From: a virus
Taxonomy: Duplodnaviria > Heunggongvirae > Uroviricota > Caudoviricetes
IMG/VR virus record: IMGVR_UViG_2698536573_000006
Length of the DNA: 34,476 nucleotides
Direction: 5' to 3' (one strand)
The translations under genes were made by a program, and so were the position numbers. A model generated the notes under the pieces. It searched no databases. It saw only the letters and a program-made list of their open reading frames with translations, and had not been told where the DNA came from. Every line of letters starts with the position of its first letter. Positions within the stretch are counted from its first letter, which is position 1. Of the stretch, positions 9,285 through 33,231 are shown piece after piece.

Positions 9285-10058
9285 TCAACCTATCTTCTTA
9301 TGAAGTAAAATTAATTTCTGTATTAATTTGGAATGAAACATAGATATATCAGAAATTCTTATTTCATTAGGCGAGTCTATATGATTGGAAACTTCTTCCT
9401 CCAAGGAGTCACAAATACTTTCTAGATTTTCAATATCTGCATTTAATTCTGGAAAACTATTAAACAAATATAATGAATCCCGTAACTCTCCTAGTTTTGG
9501 TAAAAGAGTATTACTGAATACACTAAGAAACTCCTCTTCTGATAATGCCATGGAGTTTTTAAAACTTTGCACAACATCGAATGCCAACCCATTAATTTTA
9601 GGCATAATTACTTCTCTTACCCAATATCCTTCATTAATAGCTTCTTTACGTTCTTTTCTATGTTGAACATAAGGAATAACAAAGGATGAAACTAAGGCAA
9701 ATAAAGAGATGCCAATAGAAATCCACTCTGGACCATTTTCCGGAACCTTTACAATATTATATATATCATGGGAATTTGGAACATCTTTGAAATAATTAGC
9801 AAATAAATCTTTTTTGTTATCCCTTGCCAGAGATAACTTATGAAAGGTGTCGTTTGCCTTTTCACAAAACATCAAGCCATCATTCGGGTTTCCGGATAAC
9901 AAAAACGGTGATGATATACCACTAAGTCCTGAATCGGAAATATAAAAAGGCGTGTTTGGATAAAGTGACTCATTACATTCAATGTTTTCTTTATTGGAAA
10001 AATCTGTCACAGAGCAAGCTGCGGGGAATATAAAAAAAATGACAGACAGCGCTGTCAT
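9285..10058 (-). CDS. cargo island gene 3: signal-peptide plus single-TM membrane protein
   Basis: ORF 9285..10094. N-terminal hydrophobic signal (MTALSVIFFIFPAACS), a roughly 110-aa extracytoplasmic region, one TM helix (WISIGISLFALVSSFVIPYV), then an acidic helical C-terminal domain. AT-rich. Start ambiguous (10058 or 10094). Confidence 0.65.
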   Translation of the reverse strand: MTALSVIFFIFPAACSVTDFSNKENIECNESLYPNTPFYISDSGLSGISSPFLLSGNPNDGLMFCEKANDTFHKLSLARDNKKDLFANYFKDVPNSHDIYNIVKVPENGPEWISIGISLFALVSSFVIPYVQHRKERKEAINEGYWVREVIMPKINGLAFDVVQSFKNSMALSEEEFLSVFSNTLLPKLGELRDSLYLFNSFPELNADIENLESICDSLEEEVSNHIDSPNEIRISDISMFHSKLIQKLILLHKKIG

Positions 10059-10077
10059 TTTGATTTGAAAAATATTT

Positions 10078-10422
10078 TTAAAAGAAGGGAACATTTTTAT
10101 GTAAGCCTCTCCTTACAGCTCTATCTAATTCAGAAAGCATACCTTCTTTATATTCACGACCATCAAGTACAGTGCGACTATAAAATTCGCTAGGCGAAGA
10201 AAATTTCGGCAAAACCGTTTCAAGCATACCTAGAAAGTATGAGCTTGATACAACAATTCCCTTGGGGATCAATAGATATAATCTATCATTACTGGTTGTG
10301 CAAAATTTCCCTATATTAAAGTAATCATAGGCCTGGCGCCCATTAGAACGTCCAGCAAAAAGTTTCTTGTTACTATCTTTTACTAACTTATTGAAATCTA
10401 TGGTGATGTCAGCCATTTTCAT
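10078..10422 (-). CDS. cargo island gene 2: small STAS-like (DUF4325-like) protein
   Basis: 114 aa; the segment LLIPKGIVVSSSYFLGMLETVL resembles the conserved core of STAS-like small proteins that pair with GHKL kinases. This is from memory, not a search. Begins 10 nt after the upstream gene's stop. Confidence 0.7.
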   Translation of the reverse strand: MKMADITIDFNKLVKDSNKKLFAGRSNGRQAYDYFNIGKFCTTSNDRLYLLIPKGIVVSSSYFLGMLETVLPKFSSPSEFYSRTVLDGREYKEGMLSELDRAVRRGLHKNVPFF

Positions 10423-10432
10423 GTACCTGTCC

Positions 10433-11812
10433 TCAAGTTCGCTGGGTGGCGTTTTCTGGTAGAGGAAAACGAATATTGATCATAACTCCAGGAAATCGAG
10501 CATCCTTCATACGCTTAAGATAGTTGCGATCCGGTTCAGATTCAAGCCCTACATCATTAAAAGGGTAAGTAAAAATGTCACTTTCCTCGTCATTAACCAA
10601 CCTTTGCTTTAATTTATATGATCCATCAAAGTTAATATGAGTACTACCAGATATTAAAGTCATTTTTATCCCACCTTTAATATCTCTTCCCATTTTTTTA
10701 AGATTATCATGCATATCTTGAAATAACTTCAATAATTCAATTGTTCCGGTGCCAGAACTGTCAGTTTCTTTCTCGTTTTTACAACTCACCCGCCCTTGCA
10801 AGGCCGCTACTGTTGTTAATCCTTCCTTAAACATACCCTTTTTCTTAATATGCTTATTTATGTATGGATTAACTTGTTGACTTAATGAAAAATGATCCTC
10901 AGGTAAATTATCAAAAGTTTCGCTGATAGTTTTCCCAAAATTGAAAACAGCCAACTCACATATGGGGTTTCGTACGTTATTATTAACAAAACCTCTCAAA
11001 TACCAGCGTGGGCGTTGCTCTAACCCACAATGCCGCTCCGCATTATCAAGGAGTTCCCCCATGCAGGAAGTTAAATGCTTTTCTGCCTCATGTACAAGTT
11101 TTAAATTATGATCATTTAAGCATTCGTTTATGTATGCGGTAAATTTTTCAGCAGTGACATTTTTTCTGTCATGGGCAAAGGCAGAAGCATTCTCCTTTCC
11201 GATACTATCAGCAGAGAAGATTCGTTTCTTCGGATTCGCTTTTTTCGATGCTTCAGTAGAGTCCAGAACTTTACCTGGTGCAGCATTACTAATCTCTTTT
11301 ACAAGCCCGACATCCCTGATAATTTCAAGATACTGTTCATCTTTAGGGTAGATACCATTAATCTGAATCATCGTATCTTTGAAATTTATATTACTTTGCC
11401 TTGCTGCTGTAAGAGCAACACCTAATAGACACTCAAGACCAAGACAGTGTTTTTTGTTTTTCTTGTAATCAAAAATATATGATTTCCATTTACCTCTTGC
11501 AATTAATTTTGTGGCTGCACTAATAAATAGCAGAGATTTCTCTGGATTGTCATATAAGTCAAAATATTTAGGTATTAATATCTTCTCTGCGTCACGACGA
11601 AGAATTGATGAGTCATACTCTTTTATAATCGATATATTTTCAATGAACGTAGCGACTTGGTTTTGGACAGGAGTTGTTTCATCGGAAAAACGAAGACTAC
11701 CATTTTTCTCTTGCGCAGGCTTTTTTTTCTTAGCTCTCTCAACGCTACGAAGAAATCGCAACCATCCACGTAAAAAGGTTCTTTTAGAATCTTCTTTATT
11801 GATTTTTTTCAT
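10433..11812 (-). CDS. cargo island gene 1: protein with C-terminal GHKL (histidine-kinase-like) ATPase domain
   Basis: ORF 10433..11908; start set at ATG 11812 (MKKINK), which follows AGGAA. The C-terminal region has an N-box-like ELLDNAERH and a G-box-like SGTGTIELL; the N-terminal 250 aa or so is unrecognised. AT-rich. Confidence 0.8.
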   Translation of the reverse strand: MKKINKEDSKRTFLRGWLRFLRSVERAKKKKPAQEKNGSLRFSDETTPVQNQVATFIENISIIKEYDSSILRRDAEKILIPKYFDLYDNPEKSLLFISAATKLIARGKWKSYIFDYKKNKKHCLGLECLLGVALTAARQSNINFKDTMIQINGIYPKDEQYLEIIRDVGLVKEISNAAPGKVLDSTEASKKANPKKRIFSADSIGKENASAFAHDRKNVTAEKFTAYINECLNDHNLKLVHEAEKHLTSCMGELLDNAERHCGLEQRPRWYLRGFVNNNVRNPICELAVFNFGKTISETFDNLPEDHFSLSQQVNPYINKHIKKKGMFKEGLTTVAALQGRVSCKNEKETDSSGTGTIELLKLFQDMHDNLKKMGRDIKGGIKMTLISGSTHINFDGSYKLKQRLVNDEESDIFTYPFNDVGLESEPDRNYLKRMKDARFPGVMINIRFPLPENATQRT

Positions 11813-20120: not shown

Positions 20121-20574
20121 TTCCCTGCGTGAAGCCATGACCCGTTCATGCCGATGGTGTCAGGCTAACCCGGAAAAATTCACCATTTTCGTGGAGAGCG
20201 GCAACATTGAAACGACCGGAGAAACGCCCTCGTTTGTTTACCGCTATCAGATGGTGATGTTTGTCATGGATTACGCCGGGGAGCTGGACGACCTCACGCT
20301 GCCGCTACTGGCGTGGTTATCCGAAAATCAGCCACAGTTGTTGCTCAATCCGGAGCGTAATCAGGACATCAAATTTTCCGCCGTTATCAATGACGATGAC
20401 AGCGCCGATCTCCTGTTTACGCTCCCCTTGCGGGAACGCGTTCGCATCACGCGCAGCAGTCAGGGCACACCGCAGGCAGAACACCTGCCGGAGCCAAAAC
20501 CCCGCCTGCCATCTTCCGCAGGCGACTGGTCGCATGTATTCCAGGATGTGACGTGGGGTGAAAGCGATGGATAA
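20107..20574 (+). CDS. R: tail completion protein R
   Basis: 155 aa at the gpR position. Confidence 0.8.
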   Translation: MLKTDSLREAMTRSCRWCQANPEKFTIFVESGNIETTGETPSFVYRYQMVMFVMDYAGELDDLTLPLLAWLSENQPQLLLNPERNQDIKFSAVINDDDSADLLFTLPLRERVRITRSSQGTPQAEHLPEPKPRLPSSAGDWSHVFQDVTWGESDG

Positions 20575-21202
20575 GGCATTCACCCGCGTGGATGAAACCT
20601 TTGAGGCCATTCGCGACAGCCTGAATCAGCAGGCCATCAATAACATCGCCAGAAAGCTGGCACAGGATTTACGTCGCGCCCAGCAGGCGCGTATCCGGTC
20701 ACAGAAAGCGCCGGACGGGACCGCGTGGACACCACGCAGACGCCGCGTAACCCGGATACAGGAGCGCATTCGTTTTATCTGGAATAACGAAGCACGCACG
20801 CTGAAAAACTGGCATCACGACACGGGGAAATACGGGCGAACCATCACCGGGTGGGATGAGGATAAAAACAGCATCCGCACGTTTTACCGGGATGACATCG
20901 ACCGCTTTCTGGAAATACGCACCCGGCGCATCGACCAGGACAGCACCAGGCGCGTCCCCATGTTCGTAAAACTGCGCACCGCCCGCTACCTGAAAGCCCG
21001 TGCAGATGCTTCCGGTGTGACGGTGGGTTACAGCGGCGTGGCCGCACGTATTGCACGCGTTCATCAGTTCGGTGAGCGCGATCAGGTTGCGCCGGGCATT
21101 TTCACCGATTACCCGGTACGTGAGCTGCTGGGTATCAGCCAGGCAGATGAGCGCCTGATTTATAACACGGTGCTGGGCCGGATTGCGGAGGCTGTACAGT
21201 GA
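20558..21202 (+). CDS. S: tail completion / virion morphogenesis protein S
   Basis: 214 aa at the gpS position (HQFGERD motif). Start could be GTG 20558 or ATG 20567. Confidence 0.8.
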   Translation: MKAMDKAFTRVDETFEAIRDSLNQQAINNIARKLAQDLRRAQQARIRSQKAPDGTAWTPRRRRVTRIQERIRFIWNNEARTLKNWHHDTGKYGRTITGWDEDKNSIRTFYRDDIDRFLEIRTRRIDQDSTRRVPMFVKLRTARYLKARADASGVTVGYSGVAARIARVHQFGERDQVAPGIFTDYPVRELLGISQADERLIYNTVLGRIAEAVQ

Positions 21203-21330
21203 GCGCAGAACTCATGCGACTGCTGAGCAACATCATCCGCACCGGGATCATCTCTGAAGTTGATGAGAAGTCCTGGTGCGTGCGCGTTCGCAGCGGCGAA
21301 CTGGAAACAGGCTGGTTAACACCATGGTGA
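21199..21330 (+). pseudogene. V: remnant of baseplate spike gene V (first ~43 codons only)
   Basis: Translation [43 protein letters not shown] matches the P2 V N-terminus (LRNMIRTGIIVETD...RCRVQTGG...DWLQW) then stops; the rest of V is absent. Confidence 0.6.
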
Positions 21331-23015
21331 TGGCCACAGTGGATTACGTGGATAACAAACTGAAAGAGCATGAACAGTCACGACGTCACCCGGATGCCTC
21401 GCTGACCGCAAAAGGCTTTGTTCAACTCAGTAGCGCCACTAACAGCGTGTCTGAAACACAAGCTGCAACGCCGAAAGCAGTAAAGGCCGCGTATGACCTT
21501 GCTAACGGGAAATATACTGCGCAGGATGCCAGCACAACGCGAAAAGGCCTTGTCCAGCTCAGTAGCGCCACCAACAGCGATTCTGAAACGCTGGCGGCAA
21601 CACCAAAGGCGGTAAAGGCAGCATATGACCTTGCTAACGGGAAATATACCGCACAGGACGCTACCACAGCGCGAAAAGGTCTTATCCAGCTCAGCAGTGC
21701 GACTAACAGCACTTCCGAGTCACTGGCGGCAACGCCAAAAGCCGTTAAGGCCGCGTATGAGCTGGCTAACGGGAAATACACCGCACAGGATGCAACGACA
21801 GCACAGAAAGGGATAGTTCAGCTTAGCAACGCGACCAACAGCACATCTGAAACGCTGGCGGCAACGCCAAAGGCGGTAAAGGCAGCATATGACCTTGCTA
21901 ACGGGAAATATACCGCACAGGACGCTACCACAGCGCGAAAAGGTCTTGTCCAGCTCAGTAGTGCAACCAACAGCACGTCTGAAACGCTTGCCGCGACCCC
22001 GAAAGCGGTTAAAGCTGCTAATGACAATGCAAACGGGCGTGTGCCCTCTGGACGTAAGGTTAATGGCAAACCACTGACCAATGATGTCAATGTTACATCA
22101 CAGGATATTTTTAACGGTCAGAGTATTAATATTGGTGCAAACCAGAATCTGGATAATTACAAAACGCCGGGGCTGTACCATCAACCCCTGAATGCCTATA
22201 CAAGTGCAGCGCTGAAATACCCAGAGAATCTTGCCGGTACACTGGTTGTGCTTAAAAATGCCGGGATAACACAGATTTACTATGTGTATAACACATCCAG
22301 AAGCTATACCCGCAGCCAGTACTCAACGGGTGACTGGACAGCATGGACGCCGCAGGATTCATTTCCTGTAGGTGCGGCGATTCCGTGGCCTTCTGATTCA
22401 GTGCCTACAGGCTATGCCGTTATGCAGGGGCAGACTTTTGATAAAACAACCTATCCCCTGCTTGCAGCAGCTTATCCCTCTGGTGTACTCCCCGATATGC
22501 GTGGCTGGACAATCAAGGGCAAACCCGCCAGTGGTCGGGACGTATTGTCTCTGGAACAGGATGGCATTAAATCGCACACCCACAGCGCCAGCGCATCCAA
22601 TACGGATTTGGGTACGAAAACCACATCTTCGTTTGATTACGGTACTAAATCAACGAATAACACAGGTGCACATACCCACAATGTATCTGGTACTGCAAAT
22701 AGTGCTGGCGCACATACTCATACCGTGCCATTAAGGAGACCAAACAGTGGCGGTATGAATTTCGACTGGCTGGATGGTGCATCAAGTGGCACGGTGGTAG
22801 GGAATGGAACTGTGCCTTCTTCTGGCGCACATACCCACTCAGTATCAGGCACCGCTACAAGTGCTGGGGCACATGCACACACTGTTGGTATTGGCGCTCA
22901 TACGCACTCTGTTGCGATTGGTTCACATGGACATACCATCACCGTTAACGCTGCTGGTAACGCGGAAAACACCGTTAAAAACATCGCATTTAATTATATT
23001 GTGAGGCTTGCATAA
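21324..23015 (+). CDS. H: tail fibre protein (P2 gpH-like), lacking the baseplate-proximal N-terminal domain
   Basis: From ATG 21324: [32 protein letters not shown] corresponds to an internal segment of P2 H ([33 protein letters not shown]). Followed by tandem repeats and a C-terminal GAHTH-repeat tip. Confidence 0.8.
21411..22040 (+). repeat. tandem 132-bp coding repeats (about 4.7 copies) inside the tail fibre gene
   Basis: Repeated 44-aa unit [44 protein letters not shown]; the nucleotide copies are near-identical. Confidence 0.8.
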
Positions 23016-23632
23016 TGGCATTCAGAATGAGTGAACAATCACGCACTGTAAAAATTTATAACCTGCTGGCCGGAACTAATGAGTTTATTGGTGAAGGTGA
23101 CGCATATATTCCACCTCATACAGGGCTGCCAGCTAATTCTACAGATATCGCCCCACCGGAAATTCCTGCTGGCTTTGTGGCAGTTTTTAACAGTGAAAAT
23201 GAATCGTGGAATATTGTTGAAGACCATCGTGGTAAAACGGTCTATGACGTGGCATCGGGGGACGCGTTGTTTATTTCTGAACCCGGACCGCTACCAGAGA
23301 ATGTCACCTGGTTGTCGCCAGCAGGGGAATATCAGAAGTGGGACGGCGTATCCTGGGTGAAGGATGAGGAAGCAGAAAAACTGTTTCGGATACGGGAAGC
23401 GGAAGAGAAAAAGGCAAGGTTGATCCAGGAGGCAACAGATAACATCGCAATCCTGCAGGATGCAGTTAATCTTGAAATAGCAACAAACGAGGAAAATTCA
23501 CAACTGGATTCCTGGAGAAAATACAGAGTATTAGTGAGTAGAATTGACACCAGTACAGCTCCGGATATCGTATGGCCAGAGCTGATGAATCAGGGTTATG
23601 TGCGGGAGGACGAGCAGATAACTTCAGACTGA
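23015..23632 (+). CDS. G: tail fibre assembly protein (gpG-like)
   Basis: 205 aa; its ATG overlaps the H stop; N-terminal region typical of Tfa chaperones. Confidence 0.75.
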
Positions 23633-24159
23633 AATTTAGTGATGAATGTTGAATCATCAGGAATATCATGCAATACCAATGCATGAGCACCTATTGTGAC
23701 ATTGTTTCCTATACGCACTTTGCCACCAAGAATGGTGGCATTACAACCAATGGTCACATTATGTCCTATAACAATATCCATATCATTAAAATCACCACGT
23801 AGCCCAATAGTTACCCCCGGTTTTATTGAACAATTTTCACCGATTGTTACTTTGTGACCGATAACAACACTGTTGAGATAAGAAATATCAAAACCTTTCC
23901 CTATATTTACAGTTAAAGGGACTGTTACATTATATTTATCAAGAATGAAACGTTCTATTTTCCCCGCAATCTTCCGACAGTATCCGCCTTTATCAAAAAG
24001 GTATTTGGCTATGCGCCACCAAAATAAATAACGAAGTCTTCTATGTTTTATTGCGCGAACAATTGCCTTTCGCCAGGAGAAAGGACGCTCGCTACCGATT
24101 ACTTCATAGTGAATACAGTCTTTAAGTTCATTAATATTCATATCTCTATTATTCAGCAT
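23596..24159 (-). CDS. hexapeptide-repeat (left-handed beta-helix) acetyltransferase, cargo at the Z/fun position
   Basis: 187 aa with repeated [LIV]GxxxxIG hexapeptide units ([45 protein letters not shown]); AT-rich; convergent with G and overlapping its 3' end. Confidence 0.7.
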
Positions 24160-24329
24160 AAGATAATCATGTGACCAATTATTGTAATAATTTTAATGGT
24201 ATGTTTCTACTGGCTATCCAGCGTGTCTGATACCCAGTAACAAATCGTTAACACAGGTGCAATCAAATGGTGAGTGTTAAGACTGGCCACTTATTACCAG
24301 GTATGAGGGTATGAGTGGCCAGCATTAAA

Positions 24330-24824
24330 TCAGAACAGCCCTTTAACTGAACTGGCCGCGCTGTTAAGGGATGATGTCACTTTATCTTTGAAGCCGGACA
24401 GAATATCGCTGAACGATGAGGATTGCAGGCGCTCCCGCAAATCCTCATCACAGCGTTCAAGGGTCAGTGAAAATTCTATCTTTTTCGCCTTACCGTAGCG
24501 ATCAAACTCGGAACGGGTCGTATTCGTTTCGGTCAGGACATACATGCCGTAAATCTGCCCGACGCCATCAATAAGAGGCCAGGGGCGTCCTGTATACGCC
24601 TGCGTGGTCAGCAGCGACAGCGACACTTCGCCACCTGTAATTTCAGGATAAAGCACACCAGAAAGAACGATGCGATCATCACCTGCACCGATATACTGCC
24701 AGCTTGCTGAACGGTTAACGCGTTCATTTTTCACATGCCGCCAGCTTTTGTTTTGCTGTAACTGCTGATGCGGCAGCGTGCGCAGCTCAAAAACAAACAT
24801 GCCGTAGATCATCATCATGGCCAT
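24330..24824 (-). CDS. U: tail protein U
   Basis: 164 aa; MMMIYGMFVFELRT...YPEITGG...PLIDGVGQIYGMYV matches P2 U (MMMVLGLFVF...YPELTGG...PLIDGSGHIYGMFV). Confidence 0.85.
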   Translation of the reverse strand: MAMMMIYGMFVFELRTLPHQQLQQNKSWRHVKNERVNRSASWQYIGAGDDRIVLSGVLYPEITGGEVSLSLLTTQAYTGRPWPLIDGVGQIYGMYVLTETNTTRSEFDRYGKAKKIEFSLTLERCDEDLRERLQSSSFSDILSGFKDKVTSSLNSAASSVKGLF

Positions 24825-24830
24825 GACTCC

Positions 24831-27674
24831 TCAATCTTTATCGTAAAAACTGCCACGCCCGGCATGGGCACGCCGTTCCATTTCTGCCCTGACCATTTCA
24901 CCGACCAGTTTCGCCAGTTCGCGGGGATTCTGCGTAACAACGTTATGCAGATGAACATGAATTTCACCACCAAATCCGGAGGCAACAGGCTCCCGGTTAC
25001 GGGAAGTTGCAGGAACTGATGCCACTGGCGATCGTATGGCCTCCGCCACCGGGTGAGAGCTGGCCGCAACAACAGGGACCAGCGCCGGAGGCAGCGGAGC
25101 CGGAACCACGGGGGTGATATTAATTGCGGGGGCAGGCTTACTGACCTGTGTAATCTTCCGCTCCTGCCACTCCCCACGAACAGCAAGTGCGCGGGGCAGG
25201 TTCTTAAAGACAATATCGCCGGGGCCAATGCGTTTTTTCGTCTCATCAACCAGCTTACCTGTGTTATCAGCAATTTTGCTGAGTCTGCGTAGCGTCCCGG
25301 TATTGCTGTCTGTGAGCGGTTTGTTGTCTTTGGGTTTATCACCTCCGGTGCCATTGCCATTTTCCACAGGCTTCGGCGGATTGATTTTCGCCAGGTCCCC
25401 CTGAAGTAAGGCTACCTTGTCCTGAAGAATGGCCGCACGCTGTGCGTCTTCGATTTTCTTGCGCGCCCTTTCCGCTTCATCCGGAAGGACGCCAAGTTTT
25501 TCAAGTATCCACGCCAGCGTATCCAGTAGCATTTTTGCAGGTGTCAGAACAAGTTGTAACGCACCGCCAAGAACGTTACCGAATATCTCGCCAGCACTGG
25601 TACATTTATCCAGCGTTTCCTTGCTGGACTCCATCGGTGACAGTAGCGATTTAAACCAGTTAAACACCTGGCTGATCCCGCTTCCGATTGCGTCAAAAAC
25701 AGGACCAAACCGTTCAAAAGTTTCGCGCAACGGGGTCAGCCTTTCCATAATCCCGCTGAACACCCCGGCAAAAAATGCCCTGATGGGATCCCAGTATTTC
25801 CAGATAAGAACGGCAGCTCCGGCAAGCGCAGCCACGATAAGACCAACCGGACTGAACAGCGCCCCGATAGCACCTCCCAGCAAAGAAACGGAACCCGTCA
25901 CCATTCCCCATAGTGCTGGCAGGAGCCTGACAGCATTCATTGATCCGGTCAGGAGGGAAAAACCAAGACGCAGTTTTGCCAGCGGGCCAGCAAGCACACC
26001 AAGAGCAAGCGACAACGAGCCTACGGTTGCAGTCACTGCCAGCAGCGCACCGCCTGCAATCAGTAGCTGGCGCGTCAGTACAGGATGGGCCTGCGCCAGT
26101 ACCGTCACCTTTGAGACCACCCGTGTTAGCCACTGCGTGACAGAACGCAGCGGACCGTCAACCAGATCACTGATGCGAATACGAAGACCTTCCCATGCGC
26201 TGTCGAGATTTTTCAGGTCGCCATCAAGGTTGTCGGCCATAACCTTTGCCGTGCGTTCAGCCTCACCGCGTGCGCCCTCAAGTTCTTTTCTCAGTTTGGG
26301 TAAGGAACCGTCACCCGCCGCATCAACGAGTGCCATAAACGATGTGAAAGCCTCTTCCCCGGCGATATCCTTAAAGAAGGATACCCGGTCAACTTCCCCG
26401 TATTTGCGGGTAGCTTTATAAAGGTCAGCCAGCAGATCTTCCATCGGGCGCATTTTGCCCCCGGCATCCGAAACGGACACGCCCAGCTCTTTCAGAGCTT
26501 CTGCCGCCGCCTTTGGCGGTGATGCCAGACGAGCCAGGCTGGCACGCATTGCCGTCCCGGCATCACTCCCTCTGATGCCCATATTCGCCAGCACGCCCGC
26601 CATCGCTGCGGTCTGCTCCAGCGATATTCCCAGCTTACCCGCCACCGGACCTGCATATTTCATGGTTTCGCCCAGTGCGCGAAGGTCAGTGTTGGTACGG
26701 GTAAACGCTGCGGTGAGTGTGTCACCGACCCGGTCCATCTGGTCAGCAGAAAGGCCGAACTGCGTCAGGATATTTGAGCCAATATCTGCCGTCTCGCCGA
26801 GATCCATACCGCCAGCCGTTGCCATGCTCAGCACGCCGGGAAGCGCAGCCTGAATGGCCTGCGGAGTGAAGCCAGCCATTGCAAGAAATGCCTGTCCACT
26901 GGCGGCATCGCCTGCGGTGAACTGCGTTTCAGAGCCAAGTTTTAACGCCTGCTCACGCAGCGCCTTAAACTGCGGGCTGTTCTGGTCGATTCGCGTCAGT
27001 GCCTGAACGCGGGACATCTCTTTGCCGAACCCGATCGCAGGCTGCAAAAAACGCCCGGCAGCATAGCCGCCCGCCGCTGCCGCACCAATTGCCAGTGCAC
27101 CACCTGTTTTCAGTTTTCCCGCTGTTTCCTGCGCGCGCGAATACCGCTCACGCGCCCGCGTTACACGCGCAAGCGCCTGCCGTTCGCGTTCAAGCTGATT
27201 GTTGTACTGTTCGGTGCGTCTGATGGCCTGCTGGATGGTGTTATCGCTGCCTGTCAGGGAAATGCCGTGGCGTTTCAGCTCTCCGCCAAGCTCCCGCATT
27301 TTCTGAATTTCCCGCGTGCGCGATTCATTCAGGCGTTCAAGCCGGGTGCTTAACTGCTGCATCAGCTTTTGTTGTTTTTCGCTGAGCACTGTACCCGTGC
27401 GTTGTAACTGATTAAGGGCGTTAAGCTGGCGTCGTGCTTTCACGATACCCGCATCCGCTTTACTGACAGCGTCGCGGGCGCGCTCAAATGAACGCGCCTG
27501 ACGCTCGAGATTTTTGATCGCCCCCTGCGTTCGCTGGATGGAGTCACCAAACTGCCCCATCAGGCGGCGGGCGTTTTCGGCAGGCTGGGTCAGCCTGTCA
27601 ACGGCGCTGAAAGCGACCCGGATATCAAGAGTCTTCATTGTCTGCATTCCCGCTGCGAAGTGCCGCCCGCTCAC
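24831..27674 (-). CDS. T: tail tape measure protein T
   Basis: 947 aa with a long coiled-coil N-terminal half and Gly/Ala-rich hydrophobic segments; lies between E/E' and U. Confidence 0.85.
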   Translation of the reverse strand: MSGRHFAAGMQTMKTLDIRVAFSAVDRLTQPAENARRLMGQFGDSIQRTQGAIKNLERQARSFERARDAVSKADAGIVKARRQLNALNQLQRTGTVLSEKQQKLMQQLSTRLERLNESRTREIQKMRELGGELKRHGISLTGSDNTIQQAIRRTEQYNNQLERERQALARVTRARERYSRAQETAGKLKTGGALAIGAAAAGGYAAGRFLQPAIGFGKEMSRVQALTRIDQNSPQFKALREQALKLGSETQFTAGDAASGQAFLAMAGFTPQAIQAALPGVLSMATAGGMDLGETADIGSNILTQFGLSADQMDRVGDTLTAAFTRTNTDLRALGETMKYAGPVAGKLGISLEQTAAMAGVLANMGIRGSDAGTAMRASLARLASPPKAAAEALKELGVSVSDAGGKMRPMEDLLADLYKATRKYGEVDRVSFFKDIAGEEAFTSFMALVDAAGDGSLPKLRKELEGARGEAERTAKVMADNLDGDLKNLDSAWEGLRIRISDLVDGPLRSVTQWLTRVVSKVTVLAQAHPVLTRQLLIAGGALLAVTATVGSLSLALGVLAGPLAKLRLGFSLLTGSMNAVRLLPALWGMVTGSVSLLGGAIGALFSPVGLIVAALAGAAVLIWKYWDPIRAFFAGVFSGIMERLTPLRETFERFGPVFDAIGSGISQVFNWFKSLLSPMESSKETLDKCTSAGEIFGNVLGGALQLVLTPAKMLLDTLAWILEKLGVLPDEAERARKKIEDAQRAAILQDKVALLQGDLAKINPPKPVENGNGTGGDKPKDNKPLTDSNTGTLRRLSKIADNTGKLVDETKKRIGPGDIVFKNLPRALAVRGEWQERKITQVSKPAPAINITPVVPAPLPPALVPVVAASSHPVAEAIRSPVASVPATSRNREPVASGFGGEIHVHLHNVVTQNPRELAKLVGEMVRAEMERRAHAGRGSFYDKD

Positions 27675-28154
27675 GCCAGCTAACCACTTCGCCGGGCGTC
27701 ATCATGAAGATTTCGGCGGGCGACCAGTTAAAAATAACGGCAATATCTGCCACAAAGTCTTCTATGTGCTCAAAGCACACAACCGTGATCAGGCTTCCGT
27801 CGCCTGTTCGTTCTTCCCGCCAGAGTCCGCACCGCTCAAAAAATTTACGGCAACCACACATAACTGAATAAAGTCACGGGATGCCATTTTTTTGATCGTC
27901 ACTTCATCCAGTCGCGGTGATGTCACTCGTGACAGCAGCGTAAACATGGATTCCGCTTTCAGATTCAGCACATCAGACAGCGACAAATCTCGCAGAGATC
28001 CAGCCTGCTCAATAGCCCCGGTGATCTCCACATACGTGATTTTTTCGCCGCCTCGCTCAATTGGTTGGGTAAGTTTTACGCCACGCTCACTGGTTTCTTT
28101 CACAGTGTCAGCAACTACCGTGTTTTCGGTATCGATGTTTTTCGTCTCTTTCAT
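27625..28154 (-). CDS. E+E' tail chaperone fusion made by a -1 programmed frameshift
   Basis: The -1 frame relative to E is open from the slip site to 27625, overlapping the start of T, as in P2 E/E'. Confidence 0.6.
27789..28154 (-). CDS. E: tail assembly chaperone E
   Basis: 121-aa ORF directly downstream of FII and upstream of T, containing the TTTTTTG slip site near its 3' end. Confidence 0.7.
   Translation of the reverse strand: MKETKNIDTENTVVADTVKETSERGVKLTQPIERGGEKITYVEITGAIEQAGSLRDLSLSDVLNLKAESMFTLLSRVTSPRLDEVTIKKMASRDFIQLCVVAVNFLSGADSGGKNEQATEA
27837..27843 (-). other. slippery heptamer T_TTT_TTG for the E/E' -1 frameshift
   Basis: Minus-strand ttttttg (top strand caaaaaa at 27837-27843) sits in the E zero frame as aaT TTT TTG, the same heptamer P2 uses. 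Confidence 0.55.
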
Positions 28155-28208
28155 CAGGAAACTCCTTTCAGTCAGAGGCGACGCACTGCGCCGCCTGCAT
28201 ATTACTTA

Positions 28209-28721
28209 TCAGCCAAGCCCAAGCGCGGAACGGATGCGATCGGGCACAATGTCCTTGCCGTCCTTCCGGTAAATGAAGTTCAGCAGGTCAATCTCCCACA
28301 ACGGACGATCGTTAACACTCAGCTTGTAGTAGGTGTTTTTAATGGCGTAAGTGTGTGATGTGGCTTCGCCCTGTTTGGCTTCCCCCATATCAATTTCCGT
28401 CACGCGTCCGCGCATTTCGACTTCATACAGGTCGCTTTCTGCATCGGTGTAGTATTCACCCGCAAAACGCAGTAGCGTGCCGTCAATCGTGCCGCCATAC
28501 TTAAGGAACAGCTCACGAACTGCGCCCCCCATGACAAAGCTCGCATCAAGCGCGGAGTCGTCCAGACCGAGATCAATACTTACCGCACCCATCATGCCAC
28601 CACCCCGGTAGCTGTCGGTTTTGCGCGTCAGTTTAGGCAGGGTGACGGACGTCACCTTACCCACTTCGTTTTCACCATCCACAAACAGCGTAAAAAAGCG
28701 AAGATGTTTTGGTACAGCCAT
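28209..28721 (-). CDS. FII: tail tube protein FII
   Basis: 170 aa immediately downstream of the sheath gene on the same strand. Confidence 0.85.
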   Translation of the reverse strand: MAVPKHLRFFTLFVDGENEVGKVTSVTLPKLTRKTDSYRGGGMMGAVSIDLGLDDSALDASFVMGGAVRELFLKYGGTIDGTLLRFAGEYYTDAESDLYEVEMRGRVTEIDMGEAKQGEATSHTYAIKNTYYKLSVNDRPLWEIDLLNFIYRKDGKDIVPDRIRSALGLG

Positions 28722-29905
28722 CAGGCACCTCCCAGCACCGCAAATGCGGGACCAAAGAATTCATCAGTAAACGACTGGTAAAGCTCCATGTCTTCCAGCG
28801 GAGGAACGGGCGTATATTTGTAGCGAATACGCACACGCCCCTGACGTAAATCCGTGGTGCTGTTATCCACCACGTCATACCAGCACGACGCCCCAATCAG
28901 TTTCCCGGCAGTAACCAGTGAATCCAGTTTTGCCCTGATGGCACTGATAACATCCTTCACGTTCGCAGGCGTCAGTGGACTATCGATGGTTTCAAACTGC
29001 GCTTCCGCAATTGAATCAGCCAGCACCTGTGCGGTTCGGGTATACACCTCAAAGATGTAGGCGTTCGTTTCCGGTGTGCGGTTGCCCCAGAAGCGGAACC
29101 CGTTGCGACGAATAATGGTCGTGATTTCTTTGTTGTTGAGGCTGTTGGCATCACTGTCTTCGGCCTGCAACGACCAGAACACATGCCTGGACATCCCCAG
29201 CACATTTTTAACCGGAACGTTGGACAGCGATTTGTGCCAGCCCTGCTCATGGTCAATGTACGCACGAAGGCCGCACGCATAGGCAGGCGCGGGGAACGTT
29301 TCGTTTTTGCCACTTTTCGGGTTGTAGGCGATGAAGTCCGGCCATAAGAGCATCACCTCACGTTCGTTGAATTTCTGGCGGTAGGTAATCGCCTCAGCCA
29401 TCGTGTTACAGCCGTGACATGAGGCATACACAAACGCGCGCAGTTTACCCGCAATCACGCACAGGGATTTTGTTACCGCCTCCGTGTCCAGCTCCGGCGC
29501 GGCCAGAATACGCGGACGGTATCCGATGCTTTCATCCTGCTCTGCAACAAGCAGCGCATACATCCCCGTATAGCTGCCGTCAGATTCAGAACCACCGATA
29601 ACCAGTTGATCCTGCGTTTTTCCGTCTTCTTCTTTGTGTTCAGCCACGCGAACGACGATCACCTTTGTACTCACCTGGTCTGCGATGGCCTTAAGCGCAC
29701 GATAAAGCGTCCCCGTTGTCCCGCATTTTCCCAGCACGTCATTGACGCGGGTCAGCAGTGTGGGCTTGTTCAGCGGGAACAGCTTCGCGTCCGCATCATC
29801 CGCCGTTGCCACGATACCGATAACGCTGGAATCAACATCGTTAATCGCTGTTACCAGGTCGGTATTTTCCGTAACACGGGCACCATGAAAACGAGTTTCA
29901 CTCAT
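28721..29905 (-). CDS. FI: tail sheath protein FI
   Basis: 394 aa; KLRAF, WPDF, DHEQGWHKSLSNV, IRRNGFRFWGNRT and YTRTAQV align with my recollection of P2 FI. Confidence 0.9.
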   Translation of the reverse strand: MSETRFHGARVTENTDLVTAINDVDSSVIGIVATADDADAKLFPLNKPTLLTRVNDVLGKCGTTGTLYRALKAIADQVSTKVIVVRVAEHKEEDGKTQDQLVIGGSESDGSYTGMYALLVAEQDESIGYRPRILAAPELDTEAVTKSLCVIAGKLRAFVYASCHGCNTMAEAITYRQKFNEREVMLLWPDFIAYNPKSGKNETFPAPAYACGLRAYIDHEQGWHKSLSNVPVKNVLGMSRHVFWSLQAEDSDANSLNNKEITTIIRRNGFRFWGNRTPETNAYIFEVYTRTAQVLADSIAEAQFETIDSPLTPANVKDVISAIRAKLDSLVTAGKLIGASCWYDVVDNSTTDLRQGRVRIRYKYTPVPPLEDMELYQSFTDEFFGPAFAVLGGA

Positions 29906-30062
29906 AGCTTCAGCCCCTTGTATCCGTTAAATGATTCGGCAACAATCATCACCCACCACGCGCGTAATCTCACCCCTGCGCCGTTCTCTCGCCACGGCGA
30001 CAACAAAAAGCAGTAACCCCCTCCGCACGCACATGCGACCATGCCGCACAGGGAGGGAGCAG

Positions 30063-31172
30063 ATGACCGACACCACCATGCAATTGCTCAGTCAGGGCAC
30101 AGACCCCGTAAAAATGCCGGATTTTGATATTCTCGCGGAGGGTAAAACGCTGTCAGGCGTGGCAGAGCGCCTGATGAGCCTGTCACTGACCGACAACCGG
30201 GGATTTGAGGCGGACCAGCTCACCATCACGCTGGATGATGCGGATGGTCAGTTGCAGCTACCGCCACGGGGCGCGCGCCTGACGGTTCTCATTGGCTGGA
30301 AGGGAGAACCGCTGACAGAAAAAGGCACTTACATTGTTGATGAAATCGCTCACGAAGGACCGCCGGACAGGCTGACTGTTTCAGCCAGAAGCGCAGATTT
30401 TCGGGATGAATTTAACGTTAAACGTGAGGTGTCCTGGCATGATGTGACCGTTGAGCGTGTGGTATCCGCCATCGCTCATCGGTATGGTCTGAAACCGCAA
30501 ATCAGCGAAATGCTGATGGATATCGAAATCGACCACGCCGACCAGACCGAAGAAAGCGACATGTCCTTCCTTACGCGCATGGCGGAAATGCTGGGTGCAA
30601 TCACCACGGTAAAAAGCGGCAATCTGTTATTCATCATGCCAGGTGGTGGCGTGAACGCACAGGGCCAGCCGTTGCCCTCGTTCGCCATTACACGCAGCAG
30701 CGGCGATCGCCATCAGTTCCGCATTGCTGACCGCGAGGCGTATACGGGGGTACGCGCCTACTGGCTTGATCTTAATTACGGGAAAAAGAAAAAAGTCAGC
30801 GTGAAACGCCGTAAACCGCCAAAACCCAAAAAGGAGAAAAGCAGCAGCCGTGAAGGTGATTATATGGAAGGCGCGGAAGGCAATGTGTTTGTGTTACGCA
30901 AGACTTATCAGAACGAGCAGGCAGCAAGACGCGCAGCGGCGGCAAAGTGGCAGCAACTACAACGCGGAGCCGCATCATTCTCCATCACGCTGGCGCGTGG
31001 ACGTGCAGAACTCTACCCCGAAATGCATGGCACGTTAACAGGATTTAAAAGCGAGATTGATAATCAGGACTGGATTATTGCAAAAGCCGGGCACACCATT
31101 GATAACAGCGGCTTTACCACGCAGCTTGAGCTTGAGGCAAAAATCCCGGAATGGATAGCGGAAACAGAGTGA
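30063..31172 (+). CDS. D: tail protein D (late control gene D family)
   Basis: ORF 29931..31172; start at ATG 30063 after GGGAGGGA. DNRGFEADQLT, SARSADFR, NSGFTTQLELE and a KR-rich insert match P2 D. Confidence 0.9.
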   Translation: MTDTTMQLLSQGTDPVKMPDFDILAEGKTLSGVAERLMSLSLTDNRGFEADQLTITLDDADGQLQLPPRGARLTVLIGWKGEPLTEKGTYIVDEIAHEGPPDRLTVSARSADFRDEFNVKREVSWHDVTVERVVSAIAHRYGLKPQISEMLMDIEIDHADQTEESDMSFLTRMAEMLGAITTVKSGNLLFIMPGGGVNAQGQPLPSFAITRSSGDRHQFRIADREAYTGVRAYWLDLNYGKKKKVSVKRRKPPKPKKEKSSSREGDYMEGAEGNVFVLRKTYQNEQAARRAAAAKWQQLQRGAASFSITLARGRAELYPEMHGTLTGFKSEIDNQDWIIAKAGHTIDNSGFTTQLELEAKIPEWIAETE

Positions 31173-31214
31173 GCAACTTAGAATAGCGGCAGCACCACGT
31201 TAAGGGAGGTAGCT

Positions 31215-31475
31215 ATGTTCCGTTGTCCGCTTTGTGGCGCATCTGCCCGTATCCGCACCAGTCGTCCGGAAAATGATTCAAACACCGTGCGGCAAAAGTA
31301 TTACCAGTGTAACAATCTGGAATGCGGCGTATGCTTCTCAACACTGGAAGCTTTCCATAAATTCACATCGAAACACGCCTCCGGCGTTCACTCATCAGAA
31401 GGTATCCCGTGGCATGAGCTGCCAGCTTCACACAGGGGAAACAATCAGATGAGTTTGCCTTTACCTCAGAATTAA
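31215..31475 (+). CDS. ogr: late gene activator Ogr (zinc finger)
   Basis: MFRCPLCGASARIRTSR...YYQCNNLECGVCF matches the P2 Ogr Cys4 zinc-finger N-terminus (MFHCPLCQHAAHARTSR...YHQCQNVNC); AGGGAGG Shine-Dalgarno. Confidence 0.8.
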   Translation: MFRCPLCGASARIRTSRPENDSNTVRQKYYQCNNLECGVCFSTLEAFHKFTSKHASGVHSSEGIPWHELPASHRGNNQMSLPLPQN

Positions 31476-31665
31476 CAGGCAGAATTGCCGGAGTAACAAA
31501 AAAGCGATAGATTACGTGCGGGTGCCTTTCGGCTGATGGTCGGAGGGAATACCCGAAGGCCGGATGTGGAAAGGCCCCGGAAAACATATCTGTTTAACCG
31601 AGGCCCTAACCGCATTACCTTGACAAGTGAAAGGTTAGCGCCTCTCCGGAAAAGGAGCAAGTGCT

Positions 31666-31806
31666 ATGTCGCAAAAATCGCTTACGGCCATCACGTTCTG
31701 CGTGACGGCAATCCTCATCATCTGGATGCTGCACGGTTCGCTGTGTGAAATACGGATGAGTTTCTGGGGAGCGGAGTTTGCGGCGTTCTTACAGTGTAAG
31801 CAGTAA
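31666..31806 (+). CDS. Hok/Gef-family type I toxin candidate
   Basis: 46-aa ORF MSQKSLTAITFCVTAILIIWMLHGSLCEIRMSFWGAEFAAFLQCKQ: one TM helix followed by SLCEIR and AAF motifs typical of Hok/HokA. AAAGGAG Shine-Dalgarno. An overlapping upstream frame (31536..31748) could be mok-like. Confidence 0.6.
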   Translation: MSQKSLTAITFCVTAILIIWMLHGSLCEIRMSFWGAEFAAFLQCKQ

Positions 31807-31983
31807 GGAAACCGCGACGGGGGAGCAATCCCCCGTCAATCAGTTGCCAGAGTAAGGTCGATAAGGCATCCTGTCTCACTCTATACCAGCTAATCAATTG
31901 ACACATATCAATAAAAAGTCTGATAAAATCAAAATGTTTTGTTACAAACGTCAGCTAGTAGAGAGCCAAAGGAGGCAGATTAT

Positions 31984-32316
31984 ATGGCATTAATCAAATG
32001 TCCTGAATGCCAGAAAGAGGTGATCGATTCAGTATTGTCTTGCCCTGCTTGTGGCAAACAACTGAAAAAACTTAAACGTTCATTTTTTGGAGAACTCATT
32101 AAGTATTTTTTCATATTATTTAATATTTTTATAATCTACACGATTTGTGTTGGGCTAAGAGAGGTGGGTGAAATAATAAACAACGCCACATCCGATGCCG
32201 AAAAAGCCGGTACAGTTATTGGTACGGGCTTAGGTTTAATTGCTATTGGAGGCTTATGGGTTATTTGCAATATCATTATCGGAAATTTAGTATTTCTTAC
32301 TAAACCAAAGGGATAA
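31984..32316 (+). CDS. zinc-ribbon membrane protein (cargo)
   Basis: ORF 31939..32316; start at ATG 31984 after AGGAGG. N-terminal CPECQ...CPACGK zinc ribbon followed by two TM helices; AT-rich. Confidence 0.55.
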   Translation: MALIKCPECQKEVIDSVLSCPACGKQLKKLKRSFFGELIKYFFILFNIFIIYTICVGLREVGEIINNATSDAEKAGTVIGTGLGLIAIGGLWVICNIIIGNLVFLTKPKG

Positions 32317-32320
32317 CAAA

Positions 32321-33231
32321 ATGAAAAATATGATTATTTCTATAGGTGCATCATTTATATCAATTAGTGTGCTACCTGCTCACGCAGCAACTGAGCATAA
32401 TAACTTTAAGTCATCACTCCAGTGCCGAGCAATAGAAAATAATAAAGAAAGACTTTCTTGTTATGATAAGTCAATACAACCGACTCGAACGACAGTTGCT
32501 GAAAAATTCGAAAGCAGAGATCAATGCCCTGATGAGAAAGATGATGACAGACGTTTATCTTGTTATGACCGTTTTTTTCTCCAACATTTACTCCGCCTGT
32601 AAGCTCAAAATCTAAAGCGAAACAGCTAGTAACAACAGAGGCTCAGCAACCAAATCTTTCTGAGATATCTAAATGCCGAGCAGAAAACGATAAAGAAACT
32701 AGAGTAAACTGCTACGATAAACCATTTCCACAGGAAAAAGTTGCGCAATCTAAATCAAAATTAGAGAAAGCCACAGACACAGGAAAATGGCACACATCCA
32801 TTACTACATCGCCAATTGATGATTCGAAAAATGTAATTTTATCGTTAGAAAGTGATGATTATATAAGAACTCCATTTGGAGAAGCGGTTACCCCTACTCT
32901 GTTTATAGCTTGCCGAGAAAAGAAAACCGAAGTATTTCTTAATTGGGATGTATATTTAGGCCTTGAACAAACCAGCATGCTGTATCGCCTTGATAAACAG
33001 AAAGCAGTTGAGCGAAACTGGCTAGTATCTACAGATACAAAGGCTGTTTTTTATAAAGGCAATGACATTAACTTCATCAGAAAACTAGCCAACTCAAACA
33101 AAATGTATGCAAAAATAACCCCTTATAATGAAAGCCCTGTAAGTGCAACTTTCAATTTAAACGGCCTGTCAACCACGCTAAAACCGCTTCAAGAAGCCTG
33201 TAACTGGAAACAGTATAAATCATGCGGCTAA
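32321..33231 (+). pseudogene. secreted protein with repeated RLxCYD(K/R) Cys motifs, reading frame broken at a T7 tract
   Basis: ORF 32321..32602 (signal peptide MKNMIISIGASFISISVLPAHA; motifs RLSCYDKS, RLSCYDRFF) stops shortly after the T7 run at 32572-32578. The -1 frame is open from 32569 to 33231 and continues the same motif (RVNCYDKPF). One extra T or a -1 slip would give a continuous protein of about 300 aa. Confidence 0.5.

Follow-up and report, generated by a model that had tools for sequence, protein, structure and literature searches.

A serine acetyltransferase-fold gene co-inherited with a tail-fibre tip and assembly module among Escherichia coli prophages and phage-plasmids

The site known as 'moron position 2' in P2-like phages lies between the tail fibre assembly gene G and FI, and in P2 itself it holds fun(Z) (PMC3573123; P2 record), a non-essential lysogenic-conversion gene that blocks T5 (P2 record). 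In the P2-like prophage of E. coli CFT073 this position is instead occupied by the acyltransferase gene neaT, which affects interactions with phagocytes and fitness in bacteraemia (PMC3573123), while in Klebsiella prophage acetyltransferases have been associated with capsule type. A further acyltransferase gene of this general kind is found in the 34,476 nucleotides (nt) of tailed phage DNA entered as IMG/VR virus record IMGVR_UViG_2698536573_000006, which in its entirety is referred to here as the window. The gene follows G on the opposite strand, at 23596..24159, and its product has the fold of the serine acetyltransferases (SATs). The comparisons described below show that it is tied to a fibre-tip and tail fibre assembly (Tfa) module rather than to the Z/fun slot of the P2-like phages, the first-pass annotation of the window having treated it as a Z/fun-slot locus.

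The open reading frame (ORF) on the minus strand at 23596..24159 has a maximal length of 187 aa and agrees exactly with the coordinates in that annotation, as does its description as AT-rich: the GC content of the coding sequence is 0.374, against 0.508 for the whole window, and values of 0.35-0.38 over 23650-24400 compare with 0.48-0.60 in both flanks. The probable start is the second ATG, at 24141, giving a coding sequence of 23596..24141 and a protein of 181 aa, because the first ATG is missing from 90%-identical relatives, while all homologues begin at the equivalent of M7 and the same start is used in RefSeq. The ratio of nonsynonymous to synonymous substitution rates (dN/dS) is 0.07-0.12 when the window gene is compared with the groups at 95% and 90% identity, and 0.047 between the acyltransferases of Hafnia phage yong2 and P0014. 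This level of purifying selection implies a real gene rather than a chance ORF. A sigma-70 promoter (TAGAAA-17 nt-TACAAT) is predicted on the minus strand at 24209..24181, with the -10 element being TATAAT in the P1-like and 90% copies, and is kept in six of the six genomic contexts compared. The sequence farther upstream is unrelated between backbones and, as the homology ends just upstream of the -35 element, the promoter belongs to the mobile module. Prediction of intrinsic terminators gave none for it. Hence there is firm support for regarding it as a genuine cargo gene that is under selection and has a predicted promoter of its own. It is occasionally inactivated, being interrupted by IS1 in at least one genome (NZ_CM180507.1).

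The related loci include those identified by a search built on a 12-sequence core alignment of the family. Direct DNA comparisons define a minimal mobile module of 1.85 kb at 22362..24210, which comprises the fibre tip, tfa, the acyltransferase gene and its promoter. The tip consists of the C-terminal 218 or so codons of the fibre gene (22362..23015, plus strand), encoding the Collar domain and the His-rich tip that form the receptor-binding part of the protein. Across P88-like prophages, 47-kb phage-plasmids and P1-like phage-plasmids the module shows 82-97% DNA identity. The shared DNA has its left end at window positions 22362-22380, around fibre codon 363 and the start of the Collar/receptor-binding part, in nearly all of the backbones compared; at one locus of the 90% group (L088) the match is split into two pieces with a gap. 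The right end lies at 24210 in the 90% group, at 24229 in the P1-like phage-plasmids and at 24420 in the 47-kb phage-plasmids, with which vB_EcoM-613R2, despite being named a 'phage', belongs. These 47-kb RepA phage-plasmids (CP088608, L012 6748..7000; vB_EcoM-613R2) retain 91 nt of the 3' end of a P88-type gpU upstream of the acyltransferase gene, which implies that they acquired the cassette from a P88-like donor.

The acyltransferase itself is present at 94-99% identity in other P88-like prophages, in the 47-kb RepA phage-plasmids and in P1-like phage-plasmids of 94-99 kb, and in each of these three backbones it converges on tfa with the same overlap of 37 nt. The three components of the module diverge together: the identities of acyltransferase, Tfa and tip are 94-100%, 99-100% and 91-100% across the three backbones, 90%, 83% and 72-81% in a second group, 52%, 57-59% and 64% in other P88-like phages with a His-type gene (defined below), and 39%, 53% and 65% in the phiNP group. 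No decoupling is observed among about 40 close loci in the three backbones. More widely, most of the 121 family ORFs from the fetched loci have a tfa-like ORF directly 3' of them in convergent orientation, the two being separated by -36 to +50 nt, over a range of acyltransferase identities from 36% to 100%. The arrangement is thus shared by more distant homologues (36-53% identity), examples being those of Hafnia phage yong2, Citrobacter phiNP, Salmonella, the P1-like phage JL22 and many IMG/VR contigs. In JL22, a Punavirus (L017 1773..9140), the homologue, there called sacF and of the His type, has U on one side and an inverted tfa/stf pair on the other, beside cin. This is within the invertible C-segment region, where it stands in place of alternative U' and a portion of the S' arm.

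In the tfa gene of the module the first 398 nt are approximately 86% identical to lambda/Rac tfa, and the remaining 220 nt (23413..23632) are confined to the acyltransferase-linked form. The thousands of copies of lambda/Rac/Qin-type stf-tfa match at this level up to window position 23412 only, and are not accompanied by an acyltransferase gene. Among 5,426 complete E. coli genomes, 184 (about 3.4%) carry the gene together with its upstream intergenic region, in 186 records with 159 chromosomal and 59 plasmid places, and the cognate tip/tfa is found at an identity of at least 90% in 192 records. The association between the two is thus near one-to-one. It is therefore firmly supported that the acyltransferase gene is the distal member of a 1.85-kb tip/Tfa cassette that recombines between unrelated temperate phage backbones.

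The assignment of the product to the left-handed beta-helix (LbH) hexapeptide proteins, already made in the first-pass annotation, stands. The Pfam Hexapep family (PF00132) is matched with 47.5 bits, against a cut-off of 27, and an AlphaFold2 model of the monomer (predicted local distance difference test score, pLDDT, 91) places a left-handed beta-helix, with its short beta-coils from residue 77, after four helices at the N-terminus. The N-terminal helices are basic, and the protein has an isoelectric point of 10.1. Residues 5-186 align with positions 2-184 of the 185 in PHROG 2154 (E = 7.2e-79), a family annotated as of 'unknown function'. The closest solved structures are SATs, the fold being of the SAT type, and QdtC and WlbB are also among the structural neighbours; a search of the viral fold database BFVD returned poor matches only (TM-score at most 0.31). 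The motifs IGCNA.ILGG and IG.NV.IGA, on the coenzyme A (CoA) side of the beta-helix, are invariant across the family, and the N-terminal motifs C..EV.G....FSW and FWWR are particular to it. Profile classification leaves the protein within the SAT fold and below the cut-offs of each named subfamily: the scores are 81 bits against 150 for EpsC, 59.8 against 194.65 and 61.9 against 196 for WcaB, and 22-27 against 300-475 for Vat and CatB, with NeuD membership likewise rejected. WcaB and EpsC also differ in location, as the window gene lies in a prophage tail region, outside any polysaccharide biosynthesis locus.

In RefSeq and GenBank the window protein and its relatives are named 'serine acetyltransferase'. 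The CysE profiles do not agree with this name, with scores of 70.6 bits against a cut-off of 210.65 for TIGR01172 and 44.4 against 397 for NF008349, nor is the SATase_N domain (PF06426) detected by Pfam or the C-terminal Ile tail for CysK present. In the SATs of E. coli (whose numbering is used here) and Haemophilus influenzae, His158 acts with Asp143 as the catalytic base, while Asp157, Arg192 and His193 bind serine, the last two as ligands of its carboxylate. These positions were mapped using three independent alignments, namely HMMER against SATs in the PDB, MAFFT of the family and BLASTP against Proteus CysE. All three agree that the 'DH' pair Asp157-His158 corresponds to Ser93-Tyr94 of the window protein (187-aa numbering; Tyr94 is Tyr88 when counted from the probable start). 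Asp143 of the 'DIHP' motif is replaced by Thr79, and Arg192-His193 of 'DRHP' by Met125-Asp126. The placement of Tyr94 relative to the CoA thioester derives from sequence alignment to SATs only. As the active-site residues have been replaced, the database label is accurate at the level of fold but not of function: judged from its sequence, this is a protein of the SAT fold, yet not a CysE.

The column of the catalytic residue holds His in 83, Tyr in eight and Asn in three of 94 aligned sequences, and all eight of the Tyr sequences are members of the clade containing the window protein. Likewise, among the 121 family ORFs, Tyr is found in each whose identity to the window protein is 53% or higher, and His in each of the more distant ones. 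Carriers of the Tyr form are E. coli prophages and phage-plasmids, Hafnia phage yong2 and P0014, together with clusters P0007-P0010 and P0013 according to the protein alignment, whereas the His type is found in Quadragintavirus ev015 and ev040, Citrobacter phiNP, JL22, the chromosomal copies of Salmonella, Enterobacter and Proteus, and the outgroups. A neighbour-joining tree recovers the Tyr clade as one group, with a weak bootstrap value of 61/200, so a single origin of the substitution is likely but not firmly shown. The dN/dS values given above were obtained within this clade, and imply that the altered protein is maintained by selection. If it is an enzyme, its catalysis must rely on another residue or on a base-independent mechanism of the N-acyl type; LbH N-acyltransferases such as QdtC and WlbB function without a catalytic base. 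Hence the Tyr clade may use a substitute residue, for which His102 or Asp126, one or other of which is found in most members, are candidates, or it may employ base-free chemistry, or else it may have been converted to a binding protein.

Family members are also found away from tail fibre genes. In an E. coli prophage beside mntR and in P2-like Quadragintavirus phages they occur at the integrase/att end; the homologue of one of the latter, ev040, adjoins an 'abortive infection family protein'. A contig scan of genomes gave no close copy, the best match having 51% identity, and contributed the homologues from Proteus, Salmonella and Enterobacter. Bordering the O-antigen region, every Proteus species sampled (L024-L032) has the order secB-gpsA-cysE-[homologue]-[GT2 glycosyltransferase], and at this locus two 'serine acetyltransferase' genes were reported in all 60 serotypes by the Proteus serotyping paper. 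The homologue is a paralogue distinct from the genuine cysE beside it, the product of which does contain SATase_N (2.7e-38). In these species, Proteus mirabilis among them (L031 5165..7545), it is a His-type protein of 185 aa with 39% identity to that of the window, lying between cysE and the GT2 gene in a conserved pairing. This GT2 neighbour is the sole hint from genomic context that the substrate might be a glycan. On an enterobacterial chromosome (CP138199, L009 5992..7697) three family paralogues are found in tandem, with no phage genes nearby.

No functional study of the acyltransferase family was found in the literature, which holds passing mentions only: the Citrobacter rodentium prophage paper classes the phiNP copy as 'fitness' cargo, while the papers on P2 hotspots focus on the A-Q hotspot, refer to Z/fun in passing and do not have the gene in their tables. 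A function can nevertheless be proposed. As a moron with its own sigma-70 promoter the gene is probably expressed in the lysogen, where its product would be a soluble or peripheral, presumably trimeric, transferase of the SAT fold that is likely to use acyl-CoA. Such an enzyme might acylate a sugar on an envelope-glycan intermediate at the cytoplasmic face of the membrane, the candidate acceptors being the lipopolysaccharide (LPS) core, an undecaprenyl diphosphate-linked O-unit, enterobacterial common antigen or colanic acid. The acylation would alter the surface of the lysogen, which amounts to lysogenic conversion, and as the linkage to one fibre tip is fixed, it is proposed that the receptor or co-receptor of the phage's own fibre might thereby be masked, both against superinfection and against the loss of progeny on debris. 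The invariant CoA-side motifs, the purifying selection, the features of a moron, the structure of the module and the GT2 neighbour in Proteus are all consistent with this proposal, and the prophage precedents, neaT in the same P2 slot and the capsule-linked enzymes of Klebsiella, lend it support by analogy. The suggestion of the first-pass annotation that a surface polysaccharide is acetylated so as to block phage receptors is plausible. Overall, surface conversion through acylation of an envelope-glycan intermediate, possibly with masking of the tip's own receptor or co-receptor, is tentatively put forward as having a reasonable, if less than even, chance of being correct.

A more specific form of this proposal is that tip, chaperone and receptor-masking enzyme constitute a portable cassette, in which the enzyme modifies the very structure bound by its own tip; this is rather doubtful. 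Were it true, a backbone gaining the tip would also gain exclusion against that tip, and the Tyr clade would operate with a remodelled active site, using either Tyr or no general base.

Several observations weigh against the acylation of an envelope glycan. The catalytic His is Tyr in all eight clade members, as against His in most of the alignment, so acyltransferase activity is not assured. The fibre tip and the N-terminal part of tfa are approximately 86% identical to lambda/Rac stf-tfa, and the receptor of lambda Stf is OmpC; as this is a protein, it could not be modified directly by a cytoplasmic sugar acetyltransferase. The active-site change and the resemblance of the tip to that of lambda Stf together complicate a reading in terms of surface acetylation. 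Furthermore, carriers of the gene have differing O-serotypes (O6, O166 and O139), which argues against an O-antigen-specific target, and the authors of the Proteus serotyping study doubt an O-antigen role for the two genes they observed. The homologues at att sites and at chromosomal sites outside phages indicate that a fibre partner is not required, and the gene and tfa could be inherited together simply through being physically linked, at a permissive position where the late operon ends. The paper describing the P1-like phage-plasmid JL22 states that it is unknown why the gene is there.

The possibility of mere linkage leads to an alternative in which the gene encodes an active, neaT-like moron enzyme that would modify the surface or some other part of the host, to the benefit of host fitness or virulence alone, with its adjacency to tfa being a consequence of linkage at a permissive site. 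The precedent of neaT in the same slot, with its effect on fitness in bacteraemia, agrees with this explanation, as do the homologues at att-proximal cargo sites and in non-phage chromosomal contexts, the view of the phiNP authors, and the intact state of the gene in a prophage that has lost baseplate genes. It accounts less well for a convergent position after tfa that holds over protein identities of 36-100% and several phage families, for the near 1:1 co-occurrence with one type of tip and tfa, and for the lack of decoupling in about 40 close loci across three backbones, and is hence considered unlikely. It is more improbable that the Tyr clade consists of non-catalytic or re-purposed LbH proteins, which bind a ligand or a host or phage protein, leading to sequestration or inhibition, and transfer no acyl group. 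That strong purifying selection preserves a protein with Tyr in place of a His kept in 83 of 94 sequences, and which also lacks the equivalents of Asp143, Asp157, Arg192 and His193, would fit such a role; the invariance of the CoA-side motifs would not, while the His at 102 or Asp at 126 in most of the clade could compensate for the change, and the structural neighbours QdtC and WlbB exemplify base-free N-acyl transfer.

The remaining explanations are weaker still. A role in anti-phage defence, in anti-defence or in the acetylation of a xenobiotic, with a phage component, a signalling molecule or an antibiotic as the substrate, is suggested by the frequency with which cargo slots of the P2 family house defence systems, the neighbour of the ev040 homologue and the weak NCBIfam similarity to Vat and CatB. 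These matches fall far below their cut-offs, though, no family in PADLOC-DB 2.0 is matched at E <= 0.01, there is no conserved partner gene, and the gene is not listed in the P2 hotspot papers; the modification-based defence gene envisaged in the first-pass annotation thus finds no support, and this type of function appears distinctly improbable. The strict linkage to tip and Tfa is the one argument for a role in the virion, in which the enzyme would acylate the linked tail fibre or Tfa or assist in its maturation. Such a role would be surprising for a gene of AT-rich, foreign composition with its own predicted sigma-70-type promoter on the strand opposite to the late operon; moreover, lambda, Rac and Qin are among the many cases in which a fibre whose tip is closely related is not accompanied by an acyltransferase gene, and homologues occur without a nearby fibre gene, so that this is regarded as very improbable. 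Least credible is a genuine serine O-acetyltransferase (EC 2.3.1.30), encoded by an auxiliary metabolic gene and serving to raise the production of cysteine. The database names and the nearest solved structures are in its favour, but it is contradicted by the scores below the TIGR01172 and NF008349 cut-offs, the missing SATase_N domain and CysK tail, the replaced active-site residues, and the existence of the Proteus homologue as a separate paralogue beside a true cysE.

A prophage acyltransferase moron is a known kind of element, and this one is already in databases under a misleading name. The two features that set it apart are its obligatory co-transfer with a receptor-binding module and the selected replacement of its catalytic His. 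Carriers include enterotoxigenic and extraintestinal pathogenic E. coli isolates, as well as P1-like phage-plasmids that disseminate resistance genes. Should the gene alter LPS or some other glycan of the envelope, it would represent an unrecognised lysogenic-conversion factor, with effects on phage susceptibility that would matter for phage therapy and host-range prediction, and possibly on serology or immune recognition. The linkage to the tip would then be a simple case of host-range and exclusion functions being swapped between unrelated backbones as one unit of recombination, while the conserved His-to-Tyr change under purifying selection offers a natural experiment on catalysis by LbH proteins of the SAT fold.

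The prophage in which the gene resides has a P88-like backbone (Xuanwuvirus, Peduoviridae), is inserted adjoining flk/fabB, and is 100% identical in this region to a prophage in E. coli O6:H16 M9682-C1 and to those of many other E. coli. It is defective: gene V is truncated and gene H lacks its N-terminus in RefSeq, and W, J and I are absent. A 105-nt remnant of the baseplate gene V is fused towards the tail-fibre gene without its N-terminus (window 21200..21430; 20558..23015), yet nothing is missing from the genes for the acyltransferase and Tfa or from the fibre tip, which many genomes share at 100% identity. The tail-fibre gene (21276..23015, plus strand) encodes Phage_fiber_2 repeats and the Collar domain, and is followed by the assembly gene of the P2 G/lambda Tfa family (23015..23632, plus strand; Caudo_TAP, 1.6e-39), which converges on the acyltransferase gene so that their 3' ends overlap by 37 nt (23596..23632). 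On the other side, outside the module, lies the backbone gene gpU (24330..24824, minus strand), the first of a tail block comprising gpU, T (the tape measure), E, FII and FI (24330..29905, minus strand). The gene is therefore placed between G and the tail block, as the first-pass annotation had it. In P88 the FI-U block is natively inverted relative to H-G, and an alternative, invertible fibre/Tfa pair lies together with a DNA invertase in the slot that separates G from U.

The description of this site as the Z/fun cargo slot is accordingly correct in part. It is a cargo slot after G, analogous to moron position 2 and to the position of neaT, with an occupant of foreign composition on the opposite strand under its own predicted promoter; the geometry is instead that of P88, as the right neighbour is U and not FI, and the protein and Fun(Z) are not homologous.

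Other parts of the prophage also have a history of rearrangement or acquisition. The gpD ORF (29931..31172, plus strand) matches Phage_GPD from residue 135 only, RefSeq starts the gene at 30372, and a pseudogene fragment lies on the opposite strand just upstream, all of which points to the FI/D junction as the site of a second rearrangement. At its right end (31200..32900) the prophage contains ogr, a hok/gef toxin gene and a zinc-ribbon protein gene, followed before flk by TagO/VasI-like fragments associated with type VI secretion, which resemble the VasI-family cargo of C. rodentium phiSM. Between the replication gene A and the portal gene Q, at the old/tin defence hotspot of P2, are three genes on the minus strand (9285..11812; 269, 114 and 459 aa; WP_000484450, WP_000763711 and WP_000723541) with no Pfam or PADLOC match. 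Table S5 of Rousset et al. 2022 has an entry for the same triple of accessions, given as 'hypothetical + hypothetical + hypothetical', and in that study a three-gene hotspot system without recognised domains, which may be this triple, is reported to protect against P1.

Relative to CysE (PDB 4N69, 6WYE and 1T3D), the window protein is some 90 residues shorter, lacks both SATase_N and the CysK-binding tail, and is encoded by prophage cargo rather than a gene of the cys regulon. It resembles WcaB, of colanic acid synthesis, and EpsC, short polysaccharide acetyltransferases from its own LbH branch, which are its best NCBIfam neighbours (60-62 and 81 bits, respectively), have a length of 160-190 aa and share a similar basic, helical N-terminus and the G-K-G-F/L-x-I-x-H motif region; it differs from them in its sub-cut-off scores, its own N-terminal motifs, the Tyr in place of His and its location away from any polysaccharide locus. 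NeuO, the K1 polysialic acid O-acetyltransferase of prophage CUS-3 (PDB 3JQY), belongs to another LbH subfamily, of which only the beta-helix aligns, over 111 residues, and its gene has a phase-variable 5' repeat tract. The neaT gene of CFT073 is the closest in its genomic setting, being likewise AT-rich, on the opposite strand at moron position 2 after G, rare and laterally acquired (PMC3573123), although NeaT is an integral membrane protein of the Acyl_transf_3 family (PF01757) with an unrelated fold and no linkage to a fibre-tip module has been described for it. P2 fun(Z) shares the slot after G and the opposite orientation, but encodes a protein of 528 aa with no similarity to that of the window (BLASTP, E = 7.7) and has FI as its neighbour where U is found here. 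With regard to function, the nearest model for the module may be the pairing of a small blocker gene with a receptor-binding gene, as in pb5/Llp of T5, where the two are transcribed in opposite directions, and in the Cor system of lambdoid phages. In such pairs the blocker is a lipoprotein or membrane protein that acts by binding to a receptor which is itself a protein, and it co-varies with receptor specificity. The candidate described here would be a cytoplasmic enzyme, and its likeness to these systems is one of analogy: a gene that may protect the receptor travels together with the gene that would recognise it.

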